From an uncultured Spirochaetota bacterium (GTDB lineage Bacteria; Spirochaetota; Spirochaetia; SZUA-6; Fen-1364), in the NCBI GenBank assembly GCA_963745235.1, contig CAVUXE010000053.1, forward strand, positions 1-64,000: a DNA stretch of 64,000 bases, in the 5' to 3' direction. This document shows positions 1 through 17,541 of the stretch, piece after piece (the stretch's first letter is position 1; every line of letters begins with the position of its first letter). The position numbers and the translations under genes were made by a program. The notes below the pieces were generated by a model. The model made no database searches and was not told the origin of the DNA. It saw only the letters and a program-made list of their open reading frames with translations.

Positions 1-2177
1 TTGCGAAGGGATTTCCGATATACGAGTCGGGAATCCATCCTTCCGGCGCGAAGGTCCCGAATGAGAGACCGCACCAGCTCGGAGAGACTGCCCTCCGGCT
101 CGCCGCGAAATACCCGCGCCAGGAGCTCCTTCTGCAGCCCCTGGGCGAGCGGCGTCCAGTCGTGCCGAACGGCCTCCAATCCCACGATGTCGAGCGTGTC
201 AGGCCCGGCGCCGTCGGGGCTCGAGCGCAGTCCCGCGTACCCCTTTGCCCGTCCGCGGCCTTCACCATCCTCCTCGGAGTCGTCACCTGCTCCCGGCCCC
301 CGCATGGGCGGCAGGAAGAACTTCCTGTAGATCGCTTCGAACTCGAGCTCCAGGCGGGATTCCACTCCGTAGTCAGCGCGCACGTGATCCGCGAGGCTCT
401 GATTCACAAACCGTGCGAGCTCCGCTCCAAGCTCCGGCAGCTCCAGGCCCGACGGTGACCCGCGTTCATCAATCCGCACGAACAGGGAGTCTGTGTCCCC
501 GTAGATGACCTCCCGGCCCCGGGCTGAGACAAGGTCCCGCGTCCAATACAGGATATGCTGGCCCAGGCTCGTGATTGCGCCGGCCAGCGCAGAAGCGGCA
601 AACCGGCACCCCGGCGTGCCCAACACGCCATAGAACGAGTTCATCACGATCTTGTACGCGTACACTGCCCGCGCGTTGCCGGCCTTCTTTGCGGCGTCCC
701 TGCTTTCGAAGAATCGGTCCAGGATTCCCGGCAGGATCCCCGGCTGCCTGCGAAATGCCGCGCCGTTGGGGGCGACAATCGCCCCGGGAACCTCGCCGCG
801 GGTGACCCGAGAGAGCGGATCGATGTTGAAGGTCCTGATGATCGAAGGGTACAGGCTCTTGAAGTCGAAGGCCAGGACGTTCTCGATACAGGCCGGCCCG
901 CGGGGTGATGATCCCTCCGCCGGCGACCCGCTCGATCGAGTCCTGGTCCACGCCGAGGGTCGGGGCAACGACTCCCCGCCGATGCAGGTGCTCCATGTAG
1001 AGAAACTCGAACGCGGCCACGCTCATGGACGTCTGTTCCAGGGAGGTCCCGATCAGGAGGGACTTCTGCAGCGCGAGCTCCAGGAGCCCTTCCTTTCTCA
1101 GGATGTCGAGCACCAGCCGGGAGTCCTCCAGGCAGTACAGGCAGAGGTTGTCGGCTCCTCCCGGTACAGCCGCTCCACCGCGGCTGTGCGGGATTCCCCG
1201 GGCTTTTCGTCGATTCTCTTGCCCCTTCCCAGGACGCTCTGCGCCACCGTTTCCAGCCGGTAGTCTTCCAGCCCCATGCCGGCAAATCGAACAAGCCACA
1301 GTCCGTCGAGCACCTGGCGGCCGGGGACAATGGCCTTGCTGCGCTTCCAGCGCGTGATGCCGTCGCTGTCCTCACGGTCCAGGAAGGACGCCTGCTCATC
1401 CGACCGTCCGATGTCGAAGGGGACTCCCAGCGCTGCAAACCGCCTGTCAAGCACGCGGAGGTCGAAGTCCACGACATTCCACCCGGTGATCACGTCGGGA
1501 TCGCACTCGATGATCCTGCGCCTCAGCTCAGTGAGCATCTGTTTTTCATCAGGATAGCCTCTCACCCGCGGATCTTCGGGCTCTCCGCCGGCGGCCCCGT
1601 TGAAAAGCACCTCGCCGGTCTCCGTGCCGGAGGCCGGATCCCAGAAGGCCAGGGAGACCGCGTAGACTTTCTGCGCGCGCGCGTCTGTCTCGATGTCCAG
1701 GGAGAGGACCGACAGCGGGGGCTCGAAAACGCATGCGGCAAGAGAAGGGTTCTCGTAGATGCGCGTCACTCGGCGGCCGTCCCGTCGCTGCCCGTCGATG
1801 CAGATGGAGCCATGGGCGCCAAGGTCCATGAGGAGCTGGGTGGAGAGCTTCACGTCCGCTTCGTAGGTGCGGATCCCCGCCCGATGCAGGGAGTCCCGGA
1901 ATCTCTGAAGCGCTGCGGAGCCCGGAAGCTCGATCCGGACCAGGGGAGCACCGTCCATGGAATGCCGGGAGCTCTCCAGGATCTCGATGCCCGAGCCCTC
2001 CTGCTCCGCGAGCCGGCGAGCGCTGGCAGCGTCTTCGGCGAGCACGTGGAAGAACGGCTTCCATCGCTTCTCGACAACCGCAAATGTCTCTCCGGACTCC
2101 AGCCTCCCGAAGAGATGAATCTCTGTCTGGCCGGCCCGGGTCTGCTCCTTTGCGTGGACGATGAATCCCTTGTCCAT
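1..2177 (-). CDS. polB: DNA polymerase II (family B); frameshifted, 3' end runs off the window
   Basis: Exonuclease motifs LDIET and PDVITGWNVVDFD. Reading across frames on the minus strand gives polymerase motifs DFKSLYPS (~845-875), KIVMNSFYG (~625-655) and YGDTDS (~490-505). Confidence 0.92.
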
Positions 2178-2696
2178 CAGACGGGCGGATTCTCGATGTA
2201 GCCCAGGACCGCGTCGAGGTTGTCTGCCGTGTCCCCGTCCGTGTCTACCCTGAGGAGGGGCAGCTCGGTGGGCTCGAAGCGATCACGGACGCGATAGTAG
2301 AGGTCAGCGCCTCTGTCCGCGGCGGGGTGGTCTCCCTGGTCCGCGGCAATTCGGGCAAGAGCGGTCTGCTCCGAGCAGATGCACTCGATGATCCGGACCC
2401 CTCTGCGGTGAGAGGCCGCTGTCCTTGCGAACTCTTCCAGGCGGCGCGCAGAAGACAGGGCCATGCCGTCTATGACTGCTGATTTGCCGCGGCTCAGGAG
2501 GTAGCCCGCCATGACCACCATGAGGTCATCCACGAGGCTCTTTTCCTCATCAGTGAATGCGGGGCGGGTGAAAATGCCGGTCCTCAGGGTGTCCCTGCTC
2601 AGGACGAGCAGATCCGGACGCCGCTCCAGGAGTCGCCGCGCGAGATGGGTCTTTCCCGGTCCCTGGAAGCCCCCTGAAGATGACGAGCACCCTCAC
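2177..2696 (-). CDS. AAA_33-type P-loop kinase (frameshift near 2650)
   Basis: N-terminus VLVIFRGLPGTG(K)T read by hand, continuing into ORF 2177..2533 (AVIDG...ARIAAD). AGGAG lies at the 5' end. Confidence 0.75.
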
Positions 2697-2763: not shown

Positions 2764-4139
2764 TCAGTACTGCTTGGGGATCTCCGGCGGGCCCGGCTTT
2801 TCCATGCTCATCAGGAGCCCGCCGCCCTTGAACAGCGTCACGCTCCCGGTGGACTGCGAAACCACGACAGCAAGGCTGGAGGTGAATGCGCTGAGCGCGG
2901 CGGCCGCCGCGTGGCGCGCGCCCAGGCCGGAAGGGAGGTTGACCGCGCTCTTTTCGGGACGCAGGAATGTGCCGGCGGACATGATGACGCCATCACCGCG
3001 GATGATGAACGCCCCGTCAATGGTGGAGAACTCCTTGATGGTCTCCTCCAGGCTCGGGTCGAGGATGTTCTTCTCCTCCTCCCGGTACCCATGGAAAGGA
3101 TTGATCACCATCTGCCGGCAGTATTGCAGGACGCGAGGGTAGTCCCCGATCACGAACGCGGTGCCCACCGGGCCTGCCTTCGCGCCCTTCCCGGGAGATG
3201 TCGGTGGCAATCTGCAGCACCTTTTCCAGCACCTGCGGCTCGACATCGCCCAAAGGGGTTTCCGAGGGCCGGGAAAGCATGGTGGGGAACTCATGCCCGA
3301 GGTCGATGACCAGGAGCGTGTCCAGCGCGCCGGAGTTCGGAACCCCGGAGAGGCTTATCACCAGGTCTCCCCGTGCCAGGAGGCCGCGGGACACCGCGAA
3401 CAGCAGGGCAAGCTCCACCTGGTCCGACCTGTCCAGCGTGGGAAACGGGACCTGGAGCACGTGGGAGACCTCTACATTGTCCAGGGCGAACTCGGTCTTG
3501 GTGGAGGTGACGAGGATCAGCTCGACGCTGGATGGGATGTCCTCGATGAAGCGCAGATTGCCCACCGCGTCTCCGTGGAGCAGGAGCGCCCTGGCCTTGA
3601 CCTCTTCAGCAACGGACAGGGCGTGGGCAAAAAGCAGGCGGGAAAGCCGCAGCTTGGCGGAGGAAGCGGGCTTGCCGGCCTCTTCCACGTGCCCGTGCGA
3701 GATGAGAAGCCGGCAAGTCTTCCGGCGTCCGCGCGGTGAGGATGAGCTGCGTGAGGGCGCGGTCCCGCAGCGTGCGCGCAATCTCGGCCAGCAGCATGAC
3801 GTGCTGGTCGGGGTCGTTTTCCCCGCTCACGATCAGGAATATCAGGTTGACTGGATTGCCGTCGCTGGAATCCCACGACACGCCCTTGCGGCTCCTGCCC
3901 ACCGCAAGCGCAATGCCGTCCCAATCCGGCAGGCGCGCGTGCGGGATGGCGATCCCCGGGGCGATCCAGGAGCTCACCATCTTCTCCCGTTGCAGGACGG
4001 CGCGGTTGACCACGTCCACGTCGACGCTCCCGATGGATGCCGCAAGGACGGCCGCCAATTCACGGATTGCGCCGTCTTTTGCATGGCTGCGCAGGGTCCG
4101 TATGAGGTCGGGCGCGAGGTACCGTGAGAGCAGCGGCAT
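2764..4139 (-). CDS. PTS EIIA domain + DacZ-like middle domain + diadenylate cyclase (DAC) fusion; two frameshifts
   Basis: EIIA motif GIAIPHAR (ORF 3606..4157), middle domain in ORF 3017..3781, and DAC motifs IDGAFII and GLGARHAAA (ORF 2764..3294). Confidence 0.82.
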
Positions 4140-10815: not shown

Positions 10816-11420
10816 AGGGCGAGGTCCTGGACAAGGCTGCTGAAGTTCTGAGAGGGCTCCCGGGAGTGCGTGCCGTTTCTACCCTGGACCAGGCGCAGAA
10901 GCAAAAGGTCGTGGACCTCGAGTCGCACCACGAAAGGCAGCTTTCGCTTCCGGTCAGGAACCTGGGGGTCAGCCTCCTGGCGGCCCGTGAGGCGTGCTTC
11001 GTGGTGCTGAAAACAGGAAGCTTCCGTCCCCCGTCGGCCCCGAGCGTCTACCTCGTGGAGGAGGGTGGGTCACCGGCGGGCAACCACGCGCTCACGGTGG
11101 CAGGAAAGGGATACACGATCGTCGGGGAAGAGATGACGGGGGGCGGCGTGGGCAGGTATACTGAGCCCGTCATCCCCCTGGATGAGTCTTTCGTCATTTT
11201 CCCGCAGAGGAGGAGCGGCCCCCAGGTCCCCTGCTTTTTCCTCCTGCCGCCGTTGCCCTTCCCGGAGCTCGAAAGAGTGAAGGACCATCTGGGCATCAGG
11301 GAGATTCTTTCCATCAGCCCATCCCTGGTCTCGGACGGCTATCTGCGTCAGATCTGCGGATTTCCGCCGTCGAACAGCTTTGCCACCCTGCTGGTGGGCT
11401 TTGATCTGCATTCTCCCTGA
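10812..11420 (+). CDS. Hypothetical protein
   Basis: GTG start overlapping the EamA stop (GTGA); protein-like composition; no recognised motif. Confidence 0.6.
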   Translation: MKGEVLDKAAEVLRGLPGVRAVSTLDQAQKQKVVDLESHHERQLSLPVRNLGVSLLAAREACFVVLKTGSFRPPSAPSVYLVEEGGSPAGNHALTVAGKGYTIVGEEMTGGGVGRYTEPVIPLDESFVIFPQRRSGPQVPCFFLLPPLPFPELERVKDHLGIREILSISPSLVSDGYLRQICGFPPSNSFATLLVGFDLHSP

Positions 11421-11472
11421 TTCGCCCGCTCCTTGATGAAACTCCGGCTTCGAGGTATTTTCCTGACAAGCG

Positions 11473-12474
11473 ATGAGCACGAACGCCATCAGACGAACGG
11501 GGAAGTTGGCTCTGCTCAGCAAGGCGGGACTGTTCTCGCAGCTTCGTGAGGCCGAGCTTCGCACAATTTCCCGCTACAGCGGCTATCGAACCTTTGCGGA
11601 GGGAGAGCTGATCTTTCCGGAAGGAAGCCACCGGGAAGAGCTGTATCTGATCAAGAACGGCAGGGTCGTGATACGCCGGGGCGGGAACGGGGAAGGGCAG
11701 GACATTGCCCGCTTCGTGGCCGGTGAGGTGTTCGGGGAGATGGATCTCCTGGACTCGGCCCCGCGCAGCGCGTCCGCGTTCGCCGAAGAATCGACGACCC
11801 TCCTCGTGTTTCCCCACGAAGTCCCCTTCCAGGAGCTCCTCGAAAAGCATCCGTACGTATTTGCCCGAATACTCCGCAAGCTCCTGGGAGAGATTGCCGG
11901 GCGGATCCGCGCAATTGACAGGCTCGTTTCGGAAAAGTCCCCCTGGATAGAGGAGCTCAAACGCCAGCTCCTTCGGGACAAGCTCAGCGGGCTGTACAAC
12001 AGGGCGTTCCTGGAGGAGGAGCTTCCCCGTCTCCTGGCCGCGGGGCGGCCGGTGAGCCTCCTTGTCGTGAAGCCGGACAATTTCAAGACCATCAACGACA
12101 CCTGCGGTCACGAAGCCGGGGACAAGACGCTGGTGCTCATCGCGGACGCCCTGAAATCCTGCCTTGCCGAAGGGGACCTGGGCGTGCGCTACCGCGGGGA
12201 TGAATACTGCGCCGTGCTTCCCGGGCATCCCGCCCCTGAGGCGGCGCGGCTTGCGGAGTGCGTCCGGTTGGCTGTCGGCAGGGTGGACGTGGCCCAGGTC
12301 ACCGGCGGGGCCGTGGCCTCGCTTCCCGCAAGCGTCGGGGCCTGCACGTGGCCTGATTCCGCCACTGACGCGAAGAGCCTGATCGCCGGGGGCTTTGAAA
12401 GGATGCTGAAGGCCCGGGCAGACGGCGGCAACCGGGTGCTGGGAGAAGGCCCCCTGGCGGAAGGGAACGGCTGA
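11473..12474 (+). CDS. cNMP-binding domain + degenerate GGDEF domain protein
   Basis: FGEM...PRSASA (cNMP); DKLSGLYNR, KPDNFKTINDTCGH, RYRGDEY (degenerate GGDEF). Confidence 0.88.
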   Translation: MSTNAIRRTGKLALLSKAGLFSQLREAELRTISRYSGYRTFAEGELIFPEGSHREELYLIKNGRVVIRRGGNGEGQDIARFVAGEVFGEMDLLDSAPRSASAFAEESTTLLVFPHEVPFQELLEKHPYVFARILRKLLGEIAGRIRAIDRLVSEKSPWIEELKRQLLRDKLSGLYNRAFLEEELPRLLAAGRPVSLLVVKPDNFKTINDTCGHEAGDKTLVLIADALKSCLAEGDLGVRYRGDEYCAVLPGHPAPEAARLAECVRLAVGRVDVAQVTGGAVASLPASVGACTWPDSATDAKSLIAGGFERMLKARADGGNRVLGEGPLAEGNG

Positions 12475-14627
12475 TGGAAGCGATCGCTCCGGCCTTCCTG
12501 GAACGAGTCAGGGTCTTTTCCCTCCTGTCGCGGGATGACGTGGAGCGCGTAACGGCGCACCTCACCTCGGTGGAGCTGGCCGAAGGGCAGACTCTCTTCC
12601 GGGAAGGCGAACCGGGGACGGAGCTGTACATCCTGGCGGAGGGAAAAGTCGCCATCAGCATCAGTCTCCCGGACGGGGCGGAGCAGCAGATTGCCCAGTT
12701 TGCGCCCGGGGATTTTTTCGGAGAGATGTCCATCTTCGACAATGCGCCGCGCTCGGCGACCTGCCGCGCGCTCATCCACAGCGTTGTTTTCAGTCTTTCC
12801 AAGGACGCGTTCTCGGACATCATCGCGCGGCACCCCCGCATCGCTTTGAAGCTCATGTACCGCATGCTCAATGTGACCACACAGCGCCTGCGGGACACCA
12901 GCCAGTTCGTCTCCGAGATGGTGCTCTGGGGGGAAAGCGCGCGCAAGCGGGCCATCACGGACGAGCTCACCGGCGTGTACAACCGGCGGTTCCTGGAGGA
13001 TTCCCTGGGAGGCTATGTATCGGAGGCAGGGGAGAAGAACCAACCGCTCTCCCTCGTCATGGTGGACCTCGATCATTTCCGGGAAATCAACGAGCTGTAT
13101 GGACACCAGAAGGGAGACGAGGCCATACGCTCCGCCTCGGCGATATTCCGTTCACTGCTGCAGGACAGGGGAGCCATTGCGCGCTACGGCGGGGACGAGT
13201 TCGTCATCATCCTGCCGCACATGGGGTCTGCGGAAGCAACGCAGCTCATGGCGGGGGTGTGCCGGGAAGTGGCCCGCCTGGAGATTCTCAAGGACCTGAA
13301 GGGGCCGCTCACCCGGGTGACGTCGAGCATGGGTGTGGCCTCCTATCCCGAGCACGCCACGGACCTGAGCACTCTGCGCGCCGCGGCGGATGCCGCGCTC
13401 TACCGGGCCAAGGAGGGGGGACGGAACCGGGTGGTGTGCGCATCCCCGCCGCGTCGCGCGGGTCCCAAAGCTCCCATCCACGGAATCGGCCAGAAGAACA
13501 GGGTCATCGCCAACATCATCGAAGCCATCACTTCCCGCAAGCGCTTCGTCGTCCTTGGCCACCAGAGCCCGGACGACGACTGCATCTCCTCCATGATCTC
13601 CTTCGCCCTGATCCTCCACATGTTCTACCGGGAAGTCTTCCTGTACATCGGCGGGCAGGTTCACGAGCGGTTTCGCTACCTGCTGGAGATCTGCCGCTAC
13701 AACTCCATACCCATCCTCGCGGGAGCGGAAGCCGCCCCGAGCGGAGTGGACACGGTGGTGCTGTGCGACACGCCGAAGCCGGCAATGATAGACGCCAGCC
13801 CGGGGCTGCGCGCGGTCATCGCGGATCCCGGGGTGCTTCGCATCGAGATAGACCACCACATGGGCGGAGACAGCGGCTACTTCGGTGACGAAGGGTATCG
13901 GCTGGTCACAGAGGCTTCTTCCGCCAGCGAGCTGGTCGGGCACATCCTCCTGAAGCTCCAGGGCCGCAAGGACCTTCTTGAACGTCACCAGGTCACGGAG
14001 CTTTTCCCGCGCAACCTGGTGCTGGCCATCCTGACGGGGATCATCGGGGACTCGAACATGGGCCAGTACCTGAAGTCTCACCGTGAGAAGCGCTACTACG
14101 GCGTGTTCAGCACGATGTTCAACGACATCCTCTCCCGGCGCACCACGAAGAAGACGAACTTCTTCACGGCGGACCAGCTCTTCAGCGAGCTGCAGAAGCT
14201 TTCCACCAATGAAGCGGGCTGGTTCGACTACATGATGTCCCGAAAACGCTCCAGCCGCTCCATCTCCTATGTGGCGCTGGATGAGAAGGAGTCCGCGCCG
14301 CTGTTCACCGTCTCTGATGAAGACACGGTTGTCTCTACCGCCCGCGCGGTTGCGGACAAGCTTGCCGAGGAAAGCGGGAAGCTGGGGCTGGTTGCCTACA
14401 GCGACAATCCGGAGAGAAGCTCTCTTTACCAGTTCCGCCTGCGCAGGTCCAGCGTCTGGAAAGAGTACGACCTGCGAAACCTCCTGACGGTCTTCACCAT
14501 TCAGAACGGGGGAGGGCACGAGGGGGCAATCGGGTTCCGCGTGCCGCGGACGGAGGTCCCGGACTTCGAGGCCTATATCCAGCGACTCGTGACGGGAATA
14601 GAGAAAGAGATCAGCCGCGGCTCATGA
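12474..14627 (+). CDS. cNMP-binding + GGDEF diguanylate cyclase + DHH/DHHA1 phosphoesterase
   Basis: FGEMS..PRSATC; DELTGVYNRR, DLDHFREIN, RYGGDEF; DHH motifs GHQSPDDD, IDHH, GIIGDS and GGGH. Confidence 0.88.
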   Translation: MEAIAPAFLERVRVFSLLSRDDVERVTAHLTSVELAEGQTLFREGEPGTELYILAEGKVAISISLPDGAEQQIAQFAPGDFFGEMSIFDNAPRSATCRALIHSVVFSLSKDAFSDIIARHPRIALKLMYRMLNVTTQRLRDTSQFVSEMVLWGESARKRAITDELTGVYNRRFLEDSLGGYVSEAGEKNQPLSLVMVDLDHFREINELYGHQKGDEAIRSASAIFRSLLQDRGAIARYGGDEFVIILPHMGSAEATQLMAGVCREVARLEILKDLKGPLTRVTSSMGVASYPEHATDLSTLRAAADAALYRAKEGGRNRVVCASPPRRAGPKAPIHGIGQKNRVIANIIEAITSRKRFVVLGHQSPDDDCISSMISFALILHMFYREVFLYIGGQVHERFRYLLEICRYNSIPILAGAEAAPSGVDTVVLCDTPKPAMIDASPGLRAVIADPGVLRIEIDHHMGGDSGYFGDEGYRLVTEASSASELVGHILLKLQGRKDLLERHQVTELFPRNLVLAILTGIIGDSNMGQYLKSHREKRYYGVFSTMFNDILSRRTTKKTNFFTADQLFSELQKLSTNEAGWFDYMMSRKRSSRSISYVALDEKESAPLFTVSDEDTVVSTARAVADKLAEESGKLGLVAYSDNPERSSLYQFRLRRSSVWKEYDLRNLLTVFTIQNGGGHEGAIGFRVPRTEVPDFEAYIQRLVTGIEKEISRGS

Positions 14628-15955: not shown

Positions 15956-17417
15956 TTAGAGCCCGACCTCGCGGTTGAACTCCTCGATCAGCTCGTCGAT
16001 TCGGGGGGCCTGCTCCTGGATGCCTTTCCAGTACCCGGGGTCTTCCCACTGCGCGTTGAGCTCCTGGACGGTTTTGCCCTGCTGCTCGACCCAGGTGTAG
16101 TACTTGAGGTTGTGCACCCGCTTCCTCTCCGGATAGGTGAGCTCCAGGACATTGTCCGAGCGCTGCCCTTCCAGGGAAACGGCGTGCGCCCGCACGGCTG
16201 CCGCCTGGTCAAACGGGCCTTCCTGCTCCCCCAGCTCGCGCACCCGTGACCCGTACAGCTCCATGGAGTCCGTGAGGATGGTGACCACCACGTCCTTCTC
16301 CGTCATCTCGTAGTATCGGGCAAGCTTGATGGACGCCAGGAGGTTGCCGATTCCCGATATCCCCAGGAGCGGCAGGGATTCAATCAGCGTCCCGGGCACG
16401 CCGCGGGAGGAGAGGAGCGCCTTGCCCTCCTTCTCGTTGAAGAGGCGAAGCAGGTCCATGCAGTCGTCGTCATCCACCGCGATCACCGCGTCGGTGTTTC
16501 GGACGTTGTGGATCCAGGGCACGTGCTTGTCCCCGATGCCTTCGATCCTGTGGGCGCCGAACCCGTTGCGAAGCAGGGTGGGGCACTGCAGGGCTTCCGC
16601 CGCGCCGATCCTCACGCCGGGGAACCTCTTCTTCAGGTTGTCCCCCGCCGCAATGGTGCCGGCGGAGCCCGTGGAGGAGACGAAACCGGCAAGCTGCGTC
16701 CCGCGGGCCCAGGGCGCGCTCCATCACCCGCGCGATGGCCGCACCGGTGACTTCGTAGTGCCAGAGGTAGTTGCCGAACTCCTCGAACTGGTTGAAGATC
16801 ACGATGTCGTCTCCCCGGTCGCGGGAAAGCTCGTGGCACTTGTCGAAGATCTCCTTCACGTTGCTTTCGCTGCCGGGCGTCGTGATCACCTCCCCGGCGA
16901 TCTTCGAGAGCCACTGGAAGCGTTCCTTGCTCATCCCCTCCGGGAGAATGGCGATGGACTGGCAGCCCAGCAGCGCGGAGTTGAAGGCGCCGCCGCGGCA
17001 GTAGTTGCCGGTGGAGGGCCACGCCGCCTTCTGCGTCGTGGAATCGAATGAGCCGGTGACCAGCGCGGGCGCGAGGCAGCCGTAGGTGGCGCCCACCTTG
17101 TGCGCGCCGGTGGGGAACCATTTGCCCACCAGCGCGATGATGCGCGCGGGAACCCCCGTGAGCGAGCGGGGGAACTCCAGGAAGTTCACCTCTCCGAAAA
17201 GCCCCCCCCTCTCCACCGGCTGGTTGCGCCACGTGATGCGAAAGAGGTTCAGCGGGTTCACGTCCCAGAGCCCTGTCTTCTTCAGGCCGTCTCTGATGCG
17301 GGAGGGGGCCTTTTCGGGCTCCTTCATCTGGGCGAATGTCGGGAGGACGATGCCTTTCTCTCTGCAGCGACGGATGTTCCTGGAGCGCGCCTCGGGATGC
17401 CTGTCGAGTGTGATCAT
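15956..17417 (-). CDS. PLP-dependent enzyme (fold type II, cysteine-synthase-like); frameshifted
   Basis: FPTGAHKVGA, WPSTGNYCRGG, HRIEGIGDKH, across ORFs 16470..17498 and 15956..16615. Confidence 0.82.
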
Positions 17418-17541
17418 GCAACGATGAAAACTCACCCCGTGGCCGATGTCAAGGATACGACTGCAGACCAGGGAAAGTTCGCGCGGCCCAGTAGACAATG
17501 CGCGCCAGATCGCGGAATCTACCCTGGAAAAGGAACGTCAC

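Follow-up and report, generated by a model that had tools for sequence, protein, structure and literature searches.

Direct control of cyclic di-GMP (c-di-GMP) enzymes by cyclic nucleoside monophosphates (cNMP) is known, for instance, from XC_0249 of Xanthomonas campestris. Its cNMP domain binds cyclic GMP (cGMP) at 0.29 µM and raises c-di-GMP synthesis, and the guanine is read by the alpha-C residues N145 and E146 (PMC3770947). Bd1971 of Bdellovibrio, with the architecture cNMP_binding-EAL, is a cyclic AMP (cAMP)-dependent c-di-GMP phosphodiesterase and the only cNMP_binding-controlled c-di-GMP enzyme given in Table 5 of a 2022 census (PMC8846402). Here, two overlapping genes are described in which cNMP_binding domains are combined with GGDEF domains and a DHH/DHHA1 phosphodiesterase module. 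They lie in a stretch of 64,000 nucleotides (nt), called the window, from an uncultured Spirochaetota bacterium described as a soil-type spirochaete (GCA_963745235.1, contig CAVUXE010000053.1, forward strand). The two genes look like an uncharacterised three-part signalling enzyme, and their function is read from sequence, fold and gene context. With a probability of about one half, they encode a cNMP-gated heteromeric diguanylate cyclase that carries its own hydrolase for c-di-GMP or its linear breakdown product pGpG, built from three modules.

To our knowledge, GdpP/YybT is the sole characterised family in which a GGDEF domain is directly followed by DHH-DHHA1. Degenerate, GTP-sensing GGDEF domains with a regulatory nucleotide pocket have been described in CC3396/PdeA and FimX (PMC12943098, PMC8846402). 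PggH of Vibrio cholerae is a pGpG-specific DHH/DHHA1 enzyme (PMC8861645). The domains are thus known singly: cNMP-GGDEF from XC_0249, GGDEF-DHH-DHHA1 from GdpP, and DHH/DHHA1 from pGpG hydrolases. A fixed pair of a putative pseudo-cyclase and a cyclase with a cNMP sensor on each subunit, served by a dedicated and divergent DHH/DHHA1 module that is fused, co-operonic or located beside a cNMP-HD-GYP gene, is not described in the literature searched, which did not extend to subscription-only papers. Neither the dead/live pairing of cNMP-GGDEF proteins nor the fusion with DHH was met there.

The coordinates of both genes and their domains are given in Table 1. An earlier note on this DNA, made from the letters alone, had reported two genes joined by a TGATG overlap, and this overlap is present. 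Its domain assignments were recovered as well. The translation of gene 1 contains VKPDNFK and RYRGDEY, and Pfam finds both a cNMP-binding and a degenerate GGDEF domain. The translation of gene 2, which combines cNMP, canonical GGDEF and DHH/DHHA1 domains, contains DLDHF, RYGGDEF, GHQSPDDD, IDHH, GIIGDS and GGGH.

Residue conservation was counted in aligned orthologues of gene 1 (gene1 type, 36 loci) and of the N-terminal cNMP-GGDEF half of gene 2 (gene2N type, n = 39). The residue roles and numbers (D327, D329, N335, H340, D344, K442, R446) follow PleD. In gene 1, DxDxFK has become KPDNFK, GGDEF has become RGDEY, and GRN has become GGN. Lysine occupies the metal-binding position D327 in 36/36 orthologues, next to an invariant aspartate at D329 (36/36). 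The first glycine of GGDEF is replaced by arginine in 33/36, and GG[DE]EF occurs in 0/36. The R446 position is glycine throughout (36/36), the K442 position is arginine in 35/36, and the second arginine of NRR is found in 0/36. The guanine-binding residues N335, H340 and D344 are all retained (N, H and D, each 36/36), as are the glutamate at the general-base position (35/36) and the phosphate-binding cassette of the cNMP domain (G 36/36, E 34/36, R 35/36). Gene 1 thus lacks the GG[D/E]EF motif and the metal-binding aspartate of an active GGDEF domain, yet it stays within the GGDEF fold family. The pattern indicates that the degeneracy is old and fixed, not a sign of decay, and that a half-site is left in which the presumed metal and gamma-phosphate residues are gone and the guanine-binding residues kept. 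Gene 1 is read as a putative regulatory subunit, or pseudo-cyclase. Like CC3396/PdeA and FimX, it would have lost catalysis and kept the nucleotide pocket. However, the degenerate domains of those proteins act in cis on an EAL domain, whereas that of gene 1 sits on its own cNMP-sensing protein, or on the first half of a tandem protein, and is paired with a live GGDEF domain. Its fixed signature (K-P-D-x-F-K, R-G-[DN]-E, G-G-N) also differs from theirs.

In contrast to gene 1, the GGDEF domain of gene 2 is canonical. It scores 146.7 bits against PF00990 (cut-off 23.8) and 151.4 bits against TIGR00254 (cut-off 37.4), and it carries RYGGDEF, DLDHFR, the guanine-site asparagine and GHQKGD, as active GGDEF domains do. 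In gene2N-type orthologues, D327, D329, GGDEF and NRR are invariant (39/39), as is the general-base glutamate (39/39); lysine at K442 and arginine at R446 are each found in 38/39. The guanine pocket is asparagine at N335 in 39/39, histidine at H340 in 22/39, and aspartate at D344 in 32/39 (asparagine in 7/39). The position of the inhibitory I-site reads QDRG, without RxxD in this copy; among the orthologues, the arginine of RxxD is present in 22/39 and the aspartate in 30/39. The N-terminal half of gene 2 is proposed to be a catalytically competent diguanylate cyclase. A Hypr GGDEF domain, which makes cyclic GMP-AMP, was rejected for either gene because the aspartate of GHxxGD is kept (PMC6456294).

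The cNMP cassette of gene 2 is conserved as well (G, R and S in 39/39, E in 37/39). In both paralogues, a cNMP_binding domain with intact G/E/R cassette residues lies directly N-terminal of the GGDEF domain, which is the layout of XC_0249, a soluble cNMP_binding domain in front of an active GGDEF. That protein provides the experimental precedent for the cNMP control of a GGDEF cyclase that the earlier note had suggested, and by analogy such control may apply here (PMC3770947). XC_0249 differs in that it is described as one protein with a link to a gene for a guanylate cyclase, whereas the present locus encodes an obligatory-looking dead/live pair with a DHH/DHHA1 fusion. Bd1971 is similar in that a cNMP_binding domain gates a c-di-GMP-metabolising enzyme, but its output is an EAL hydrolase only, without cyclase, paired pseudo-enzyme or DHH module.

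The comparison covered 60 related genomes (E<=1e-40 in a first search, E<=1e-15 in a second). At 45 loci, the window's own among them, a gene1-type open reading frame (ORF) precedes one of the gene2N type without a change of strand, with the same degeneracy and tight coupling. The intergenic distance ranges from -20 to +26 nt at 41 of the 45 loci, and 22/45 overlap by exactly 1 or 4 nt. Moreover, a single ORF of 645-650 amino acids (aa) in G041 and G028 joins a gene1-type half to a gene2N-type half (L050 1054-3006 (+), L051 132-2069 (+)). A database search with such a single-chain protein returned at least 58 clusters of dead-live proteins (642-838 aa, 98-100% query coverage). In 58/58 of these (P0237-P0294), KPDxFK and RGNE[FM] are found in the first half, DxDxFR and GGDEF in the second.

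In this order of spirochaetes the system is modular, and its conserved core is the dead/live cNMP-GGDEF pair, in which the dead partner always comes first. The view that both proteins form one functional unit is supported by the Rosetta-stone fusions, the fixed gene order and the stop/start overlaps. The cooperation of the dead paralogue with the live one, which had been put forward earlier, is strongly backed by the natural single-chain fusions, whose asymmetry recurs in every cluster.

Single-chain cNMP-GGDEF(dead)-cNMP-GGDEF(live) proteins, about 650 aa long, make up a family that is widespread in Spirochaetota. Disrupted copies of the system also occur. In G008 (L014), gene 1 runs into gene 2 in an ORF of 1059 aa. 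The stretch at about aa 290-340 of this ORF resembles neither gene, so that a frameshift is more probable than a triple fusion. Gene 2 is in several pieces in G013 (L057) and G021 (L023), and in G014 (L031) the GGDEF/DHH junction is out of frame. The copies in these four genomes reflect either errors in metagenome-assembled genomes (MAGs) or decay.

The third module is joined to gene 2 in the window's family. Among the best 120 database matches listed for gene 2, 116 carry the cNMP, GGDEF and DHH domains, at 46-99% identity, and the named ones are 'diguanylate cyclase' proteins of Spirochaetia/Spirochaetota MAGs. In the related genomes, gene2N and the DHH module share one ORF at 16 loci. In five others (G023, G041, G029, G031, G048), a stop and a new start stand at the junction position, and gene1, gene2N and DHH are three adjacent genes. 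At 20 further loci, the two cNMP-GGDEF genes stand by themselves. In a maximum-likelihood tree of 31 DHH modules, the fused forms all fall into a single clade (support 100/99), which is the window's family (f1). G023, with the three-gene form, falls inside this clade with weak support. The split copy of G014 lies there too, and its position beside a fused sister makes a frameshift the probable cause. The earlier note had allowed for the junction being a misread stop. For the window's family this was ruled out by the homologue architecture and the 16 single-ORF loci; outside it, the DHH module is a separate gene. The fusion is therefore one state, specific to this lineage, of a more widely distributed modular system.

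The free-standing form, about 386 aa long, has 764 members at E<=1e-10, many of which are labelled nanoRNase/pAp phosphatase by the Joint Genome Institute (JGI). This DHH/DHHA1 clade is an accessory to the pair. It was found in 34/60 relatives, and all of these but G058 (91% complete) have a gene2N-type match as well (33/34). The pair occurs without the DHH clade in 15/60 relatives, and neither occurs in 11/60. Where the free-standing module lies away from the pair, it is placed tail-to-tail with a cNMP_binding+HD_5 (HD-GYP) gene in 5/6 loci, all of one sister family, f6 (L025 2675-3778 (-), L026 376-1470 (+), L027 2659-3753 (-), L028 2669-4006 (-), L030 2704-3756 (-)). All genomic links of the clade, be it as a fused domain, as a third operon gene or as an HD-GYP neighbour, are to cNMP-regulated c-di-GMP enzymes. 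An orthologue of the cNMP_binding+HD_5 gene is also present in the window's genome (G000:C25:1185-2201, 48% identity). In the literature consulted, no description of cNMP_binding with HD-GYP, the architecture of a cNMP-sensing c-di-GMP phosphodiesterase, was met.

The motifs DxD, DT, DHH, GDS, RxRR and GGGH are invariant in the 31 relatives aligned (31/31). An AlphaFold2 model of gene 2 aa 330-717 has a predicted local distance difference test score (pLDDT) of 86.8 and shows the two-domain DHH + DHHA1 fold of the NrnA-like class. Its Foldseek matches, with E values from 2e-16 to 2.6e-13, include TmPDE (the best, E 2e-16), Pde2/NrnA of S. aureus, a RecJ-like protein of D. radiodurans, Rv2837c, Borrelia DhhP and the GdpP catalytic domain; identity across these nearest folds is 15-18%. 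The DHHA1 half is real despite its sub-threshold Pfam score, because GGGH and RxRR are invariant and the fold matches whole DHH-DHHA1 enzymes. Compared to the structural relatives, a helical insert of about 60 extra residues lies between DHH and DHHA1. At sequence level, the best match in the Protein Data Bank (PDB) reaches E 7e-4 with the single sequence and E 4.5e-8 with a profile of the DHH clade, the latter to the GdpP catalytic domain. The module is not an orthologue of Borrelia DhhP (9r7o), which is matched at E 0.0033 with the single sequence and at 3.1e-7 with the profile. PggH is absent among the PDB sequence, profile and Foldseek matches listed for the module.

Against the NrnA equivalog NF053633, the module scores 21.6 bits at a cut-off of 350, a cut-off that 0/14 reference genomes passed in a six-frame control; three other loci of the same genome score 118, 73 and 59 bits. 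The module shares the DHH, GGGH and RxR motifs and the two-domain fold with NrnA, Pde2 and TmPDE. It differs from them in its low identity, its insert, its failure against the equivalog model and its fusion or linkage to cNMP-regulated enzymes. Like GdpP, it has the DTxKP motif along with the DHH/DHHA1 catalytic motifs. However, GdpP is anchored in the membrane and contains a PAS domain, whereas gene 2 begins its cNMP_binding domain at aa 33 and shows no PAS domain by Pfam (no dedicated transmembrane prediction was made). The GGDEF domain of GdpP is degenerate and that of gene 2 canonical. Moreover, the fusion in gene 2 arose separately, from the free-standing clade, and fold identity to GdpP is 17-18%.

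The genome already encodes the usual enzymes of this class, a DhhP orthologue (G000:C91, 319 aa, E 7.8e-66 to 9r7o) and a second NrnA-like enzyme, a homologue of the Bacteroides-type nanoRNase. A role of the gene 2 module in cyclic di-AMP (c-di-AMP) turnover is therefore unlikely on this comparison. The enzymes for c-di-AMP/pApA and nanoRNA are in place, and the module looks like a specialised extra, a very divergent dinucleotide phosphodiesterase of the NrnA/GdpP type tied to cNMP-regulated c-di-GMP enzymes. The genome further contains 5 EAL matches and 23 class III cyclase matches, and the latter could supply cNMP. EAL enzymes produce pGpG. No match to Orn was found in the genome, which is 85.7% complete. 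The earlier note had proposed a hub linking cNMP, c-di-GMP and c-di-AMP/pGpG turnover. Its fusion and gene pair hold up, its dead-live cooperation is backed by the single-chain fusions, and cNMP control has a precedent in XC_0249, but the c-di-AMP part is not supported, given the links of the DHH clade to c-di-GMP enzymes and the two other phosphodiesterases.

The following mechanism is proposed for the cNMP-gated heteromeric cyclase. The cNMP domain of gene 2 would set the activity of its own GGDEF cyclase, as in XC_0249. Gene 1 would be an ancient paralogue without the Mg/triphosphate side, but with the guanine pocket and a cNMP site of its own. Made in step with gene 2, it may pair with it and contribute the regulatory, catalytically inactive half of a GGDEF dimer that is asymmetric. 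It may either keep the live subunit in a pair that is unproductive or tune its activity. In this way, it could add a second cNMP input, and possibly a guanine-nucleotide input, to the complex. The most likely substrate of the DHH/DHHA1 module is pGpG, which it would cleave to GMP; c-di-GMP itself is a further possible substrate. This proposed part in the second step of c-di-GMP turnover is modelled on PggH (PMC8861645). Synthesis of the signal and removal of its breakdown product would then lie in one polypeptide, and cNMP would decide the balance. The analysis shows the domain make-up, the residue pattern, its conservation, the gene order and the fusions, and from these we infer heteromer formation, cNMP gating and the DHH substrate.

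Several observations weigh against this mechanism. The AlphaFold2 model of a natural dead-live single chain (P0237, 57 aligned sequences) has well-folded domains (pLDDT 80.3). However, its predicted template modelling score is 0.49, both stalk-to-GGDEF hinges are below pLDDT 50, and no confident pairing geometry is obtained. The pair can do without the DHH module, as 15 of the 60 relatives have the former and lack the DHH clade. The two NrnA-like enzymes already present could degrade pGpG. A cyclase and a pGpG hydrolase in one protein have no obvious logic unless they are oppositely regulated. The HD-GYP adjacency is convergent, not co-transcribed and confined to f6, and may therefore be partly inherited synteny. 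The cNMP domain is common to all partners of the DHH clade, as much as c-di-GMP is. Finally, the counts are not independent, because the relatives are akin to one another and mostly MAGs from a single order.

Other explanations of the same data were considered. The asymmetric dead/live dimer may close one phosphodiester bond only and make a linear (p)(pp)GpG-type product, with the DHH/DHHA1 module as cognate hydrolase, in the way that Rel is synthetase and hydrolase. The dead half-site would hold a guanine nucleotide solely as 3'-OH donor and the live one Mg-GTP, giving pppGpG, ppGpG or pGpG depending on the nucleotide in the metal-free half-site. In GGDEF dimers, the general-base glutamate acts across the dimer on the 3'-OH in the other half-site (PMC6456294). 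One live subunit would thus be enough for one bond, and since only one bond could form, a linear product would be released instead of c-di-GMP. The losses are complementary. The gene1 type keeps N/H/D (36/36) without the metal aspartate, the first glycine, R446 and the second NRR arginine, and in the gene2N type the metal, phosphate and NRR residues are all present while the base pocket is looser (D344: 32 D, 7 N; H340: 22 H; n = 39). The dead-live order and asymmetry in 58/58 single-chain clusters (of at least 58) fit as well, and the nearest folds of the DHH module mostly act on linear dinucleotides. On the other hand, no GGDEF product of this kind is known as a signal, and the live subunit could homodimerise and make c-di-GMP. 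The RxxD arginine in 22/39 live-type orthologues agrees with c-di-GMP as the product, the DHH clade is often missing where the pair occurs, and the residue roles in this purely inferential reading are carried over from PleD. A linear product is therefore regarded as rather unlikely. If true, the unit would be a cNMP-controlled synthetase/hydrolase for a linear-dinucleotide second messenger, and GGDEF domains could be wired to make linear dinucleotides.

The remaining explanations concern the substrate of the DHH/DHHA1 module. It could act as GdpP does, degrading c-di-AMP or pApA, with the GGDEF and cNMP domains as regulators only. GdpP/YybT is a known GGDEF-DHH-DHHA1 protein that cleaves c-di-AMP (PMC12943098), it is the best PDB profile match of the clade, and the genome makes c-di-AMP, having 2 diadenylate cyclase (DAC) matches, one inside the window and the other CdaA-sized on another contig. 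This is nonetheless improbable given the canonical GGDEF domain, an N-terminus without a transmembrane/PAS part by Pfam, a recent fusion of an ancestrally free-standing clade, gene neighbours that are c-di-GMP enzymes, the strong DhhP orthologue, and a similarity to GdpP no better than that to TmPDE or DhhP. The module could also end the input signal by hydrolysing the cAMP/cGMP read by the neighbouring sensors. Such a role would suit the 23 class III cyclase matches and the presence of a cNMP_binding domain in all partners of the clade, in the GGDEF pair as well as in the neighbouring HD-GYP protein. All close structural relatives, however, act on linear or cyclic dinucleotides, nanoRNA and pAp, not on 3',5'-cNMP, and no bacterial DHH/DHHA1 cNMP phosphodiesterase turned up in the literature, in which no search was aimed at one. 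Hydrolysis of the input is thus considered quite improbable. About as little weight is given to a generic nanoRNase/pAp phosphatase neutrally fused to the cyclase, without functional coupling. The JGI names of many free-standing members and the complete set of NrnA-type motifs speak for it. However, the module falls below three other loci of its genome in the NrnA equivalog comparison, the clade is, one exception aside, restricted to genomes with the pair, and three independent kinds of linkage tie it to cNMP-regulated c-di-GMP enzymes.

If the heteromeric cyclase with its own hydrolase is the correct reading, the pair would be a natural case of a GGDEF cyclase regulated heteromerically by a dead paralogue. 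It would also represent a second kind of direct cross-talk from cAMP/cGMP to c-di-GMP, beside XC_0249 and Bd1971. Furthermore, the module would be a candidate pathway-specific second-step phosphodiesterase, a pGpG hydrolase, for bacteria without Orn.

Table 1 Features of the two-gene locus, with positions in the window
Feature	Position	Strand	Basis
Gene 1, 333 aa, cNMP-binding + degenerate GGDEF	11473..12474	+	ORF, Pfam; orthologues in 36 aligned loci
Gene 1 cNMP_binding, aa 39-126, cassette FGEM...PRSAS	11587..11850	+	Pfam E 2e-18
Gene 1 degenerate GGDEF, aa 168-321	11974..12435	+	Pfam PF00990 E 4e-30
TGATG stop/start overlap, TGA 12472-12474, ATG 12474-12476, one base shared	12472..12476	+	Sequence
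Gene 2, 717 aa, cNMP-binding + intact GGDEF + DHH/DHHA1	12474..14627	+	ORF, Pfam; PF00027, PF00990 and PF01368 in 116/120 best homologues
Gene 2 cNMP_binding, aa 33-120, cassette FGEM...PRSAT	12570..12833	+	Pfam E 9e-27
Gene 2 GGDEF, aa 160-319, DLDHFR and RYGGDEF	12951..13430	+	Pfam E 7e-43
Pro/Arg-rich linker and first helix, aa 320-357, GGDEF-DHH fusion junction	13431..13544	+	Translation
DHH domain, aa 358-502, GHQSPDDD, CDTPKP, IDHH; GIIGDS just downstream	13545..13979	+	Pfam 37.7 bits (cut-off 28.1)
DHHA1 domain, aa 615-706, FRLRR and GGGH	14316..14591	+	Pfam 17.2 bits, below the 25.9 cut-off

The surroundings of the locus are ordinary. The GC content is flat across the window (0.61-0.67), an EamA gene lies upstream and a convergent pyridoxal phosphate (PLP) enzyme downstream, and the window holds housekeeping genes such as EamA, PLP enzymes, FeoB and ClpS/ClpA. 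A mobile or defence-island origin was ruled out by the flat GC content and these neighbours. With the overlapping ORFs, they make the unit a two-gene operon in a chromosomal setting. A scan for promoters and terminators gave 1 weak promoter-like site and no convincing terminator. Between the EamA gene and gene 1, a gap of about 660 nt (10816..11472) contains no Pfam-supported ORF and is unusually long for a leader or promoter. Rfam found no riboswitch or RNA element in it, only a chance-level microRNA match (E 0.12).

The DAC match in the window is an ORF of 176 aa with little beyond the domain (2764..3294 (-), PF02457 E 2.9e-20). Next to it lie a fragment resembling an AAA_33 kinase and a DNA polymerase of family B that is present as two ORFs, the exonuclease and polymerase parts (2177..2533 (-), 1098..2177 (-), 1..968 (-)). 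Downstream of the locus, two ORFs overlap (15956..16615 (-) and 16470..17498 (-)). The upstream one has a partial, sub-threshold PALP match and the other none; together they seem to be a single gene for a PLP enzyme that a frameshift or an assembly error has divided.

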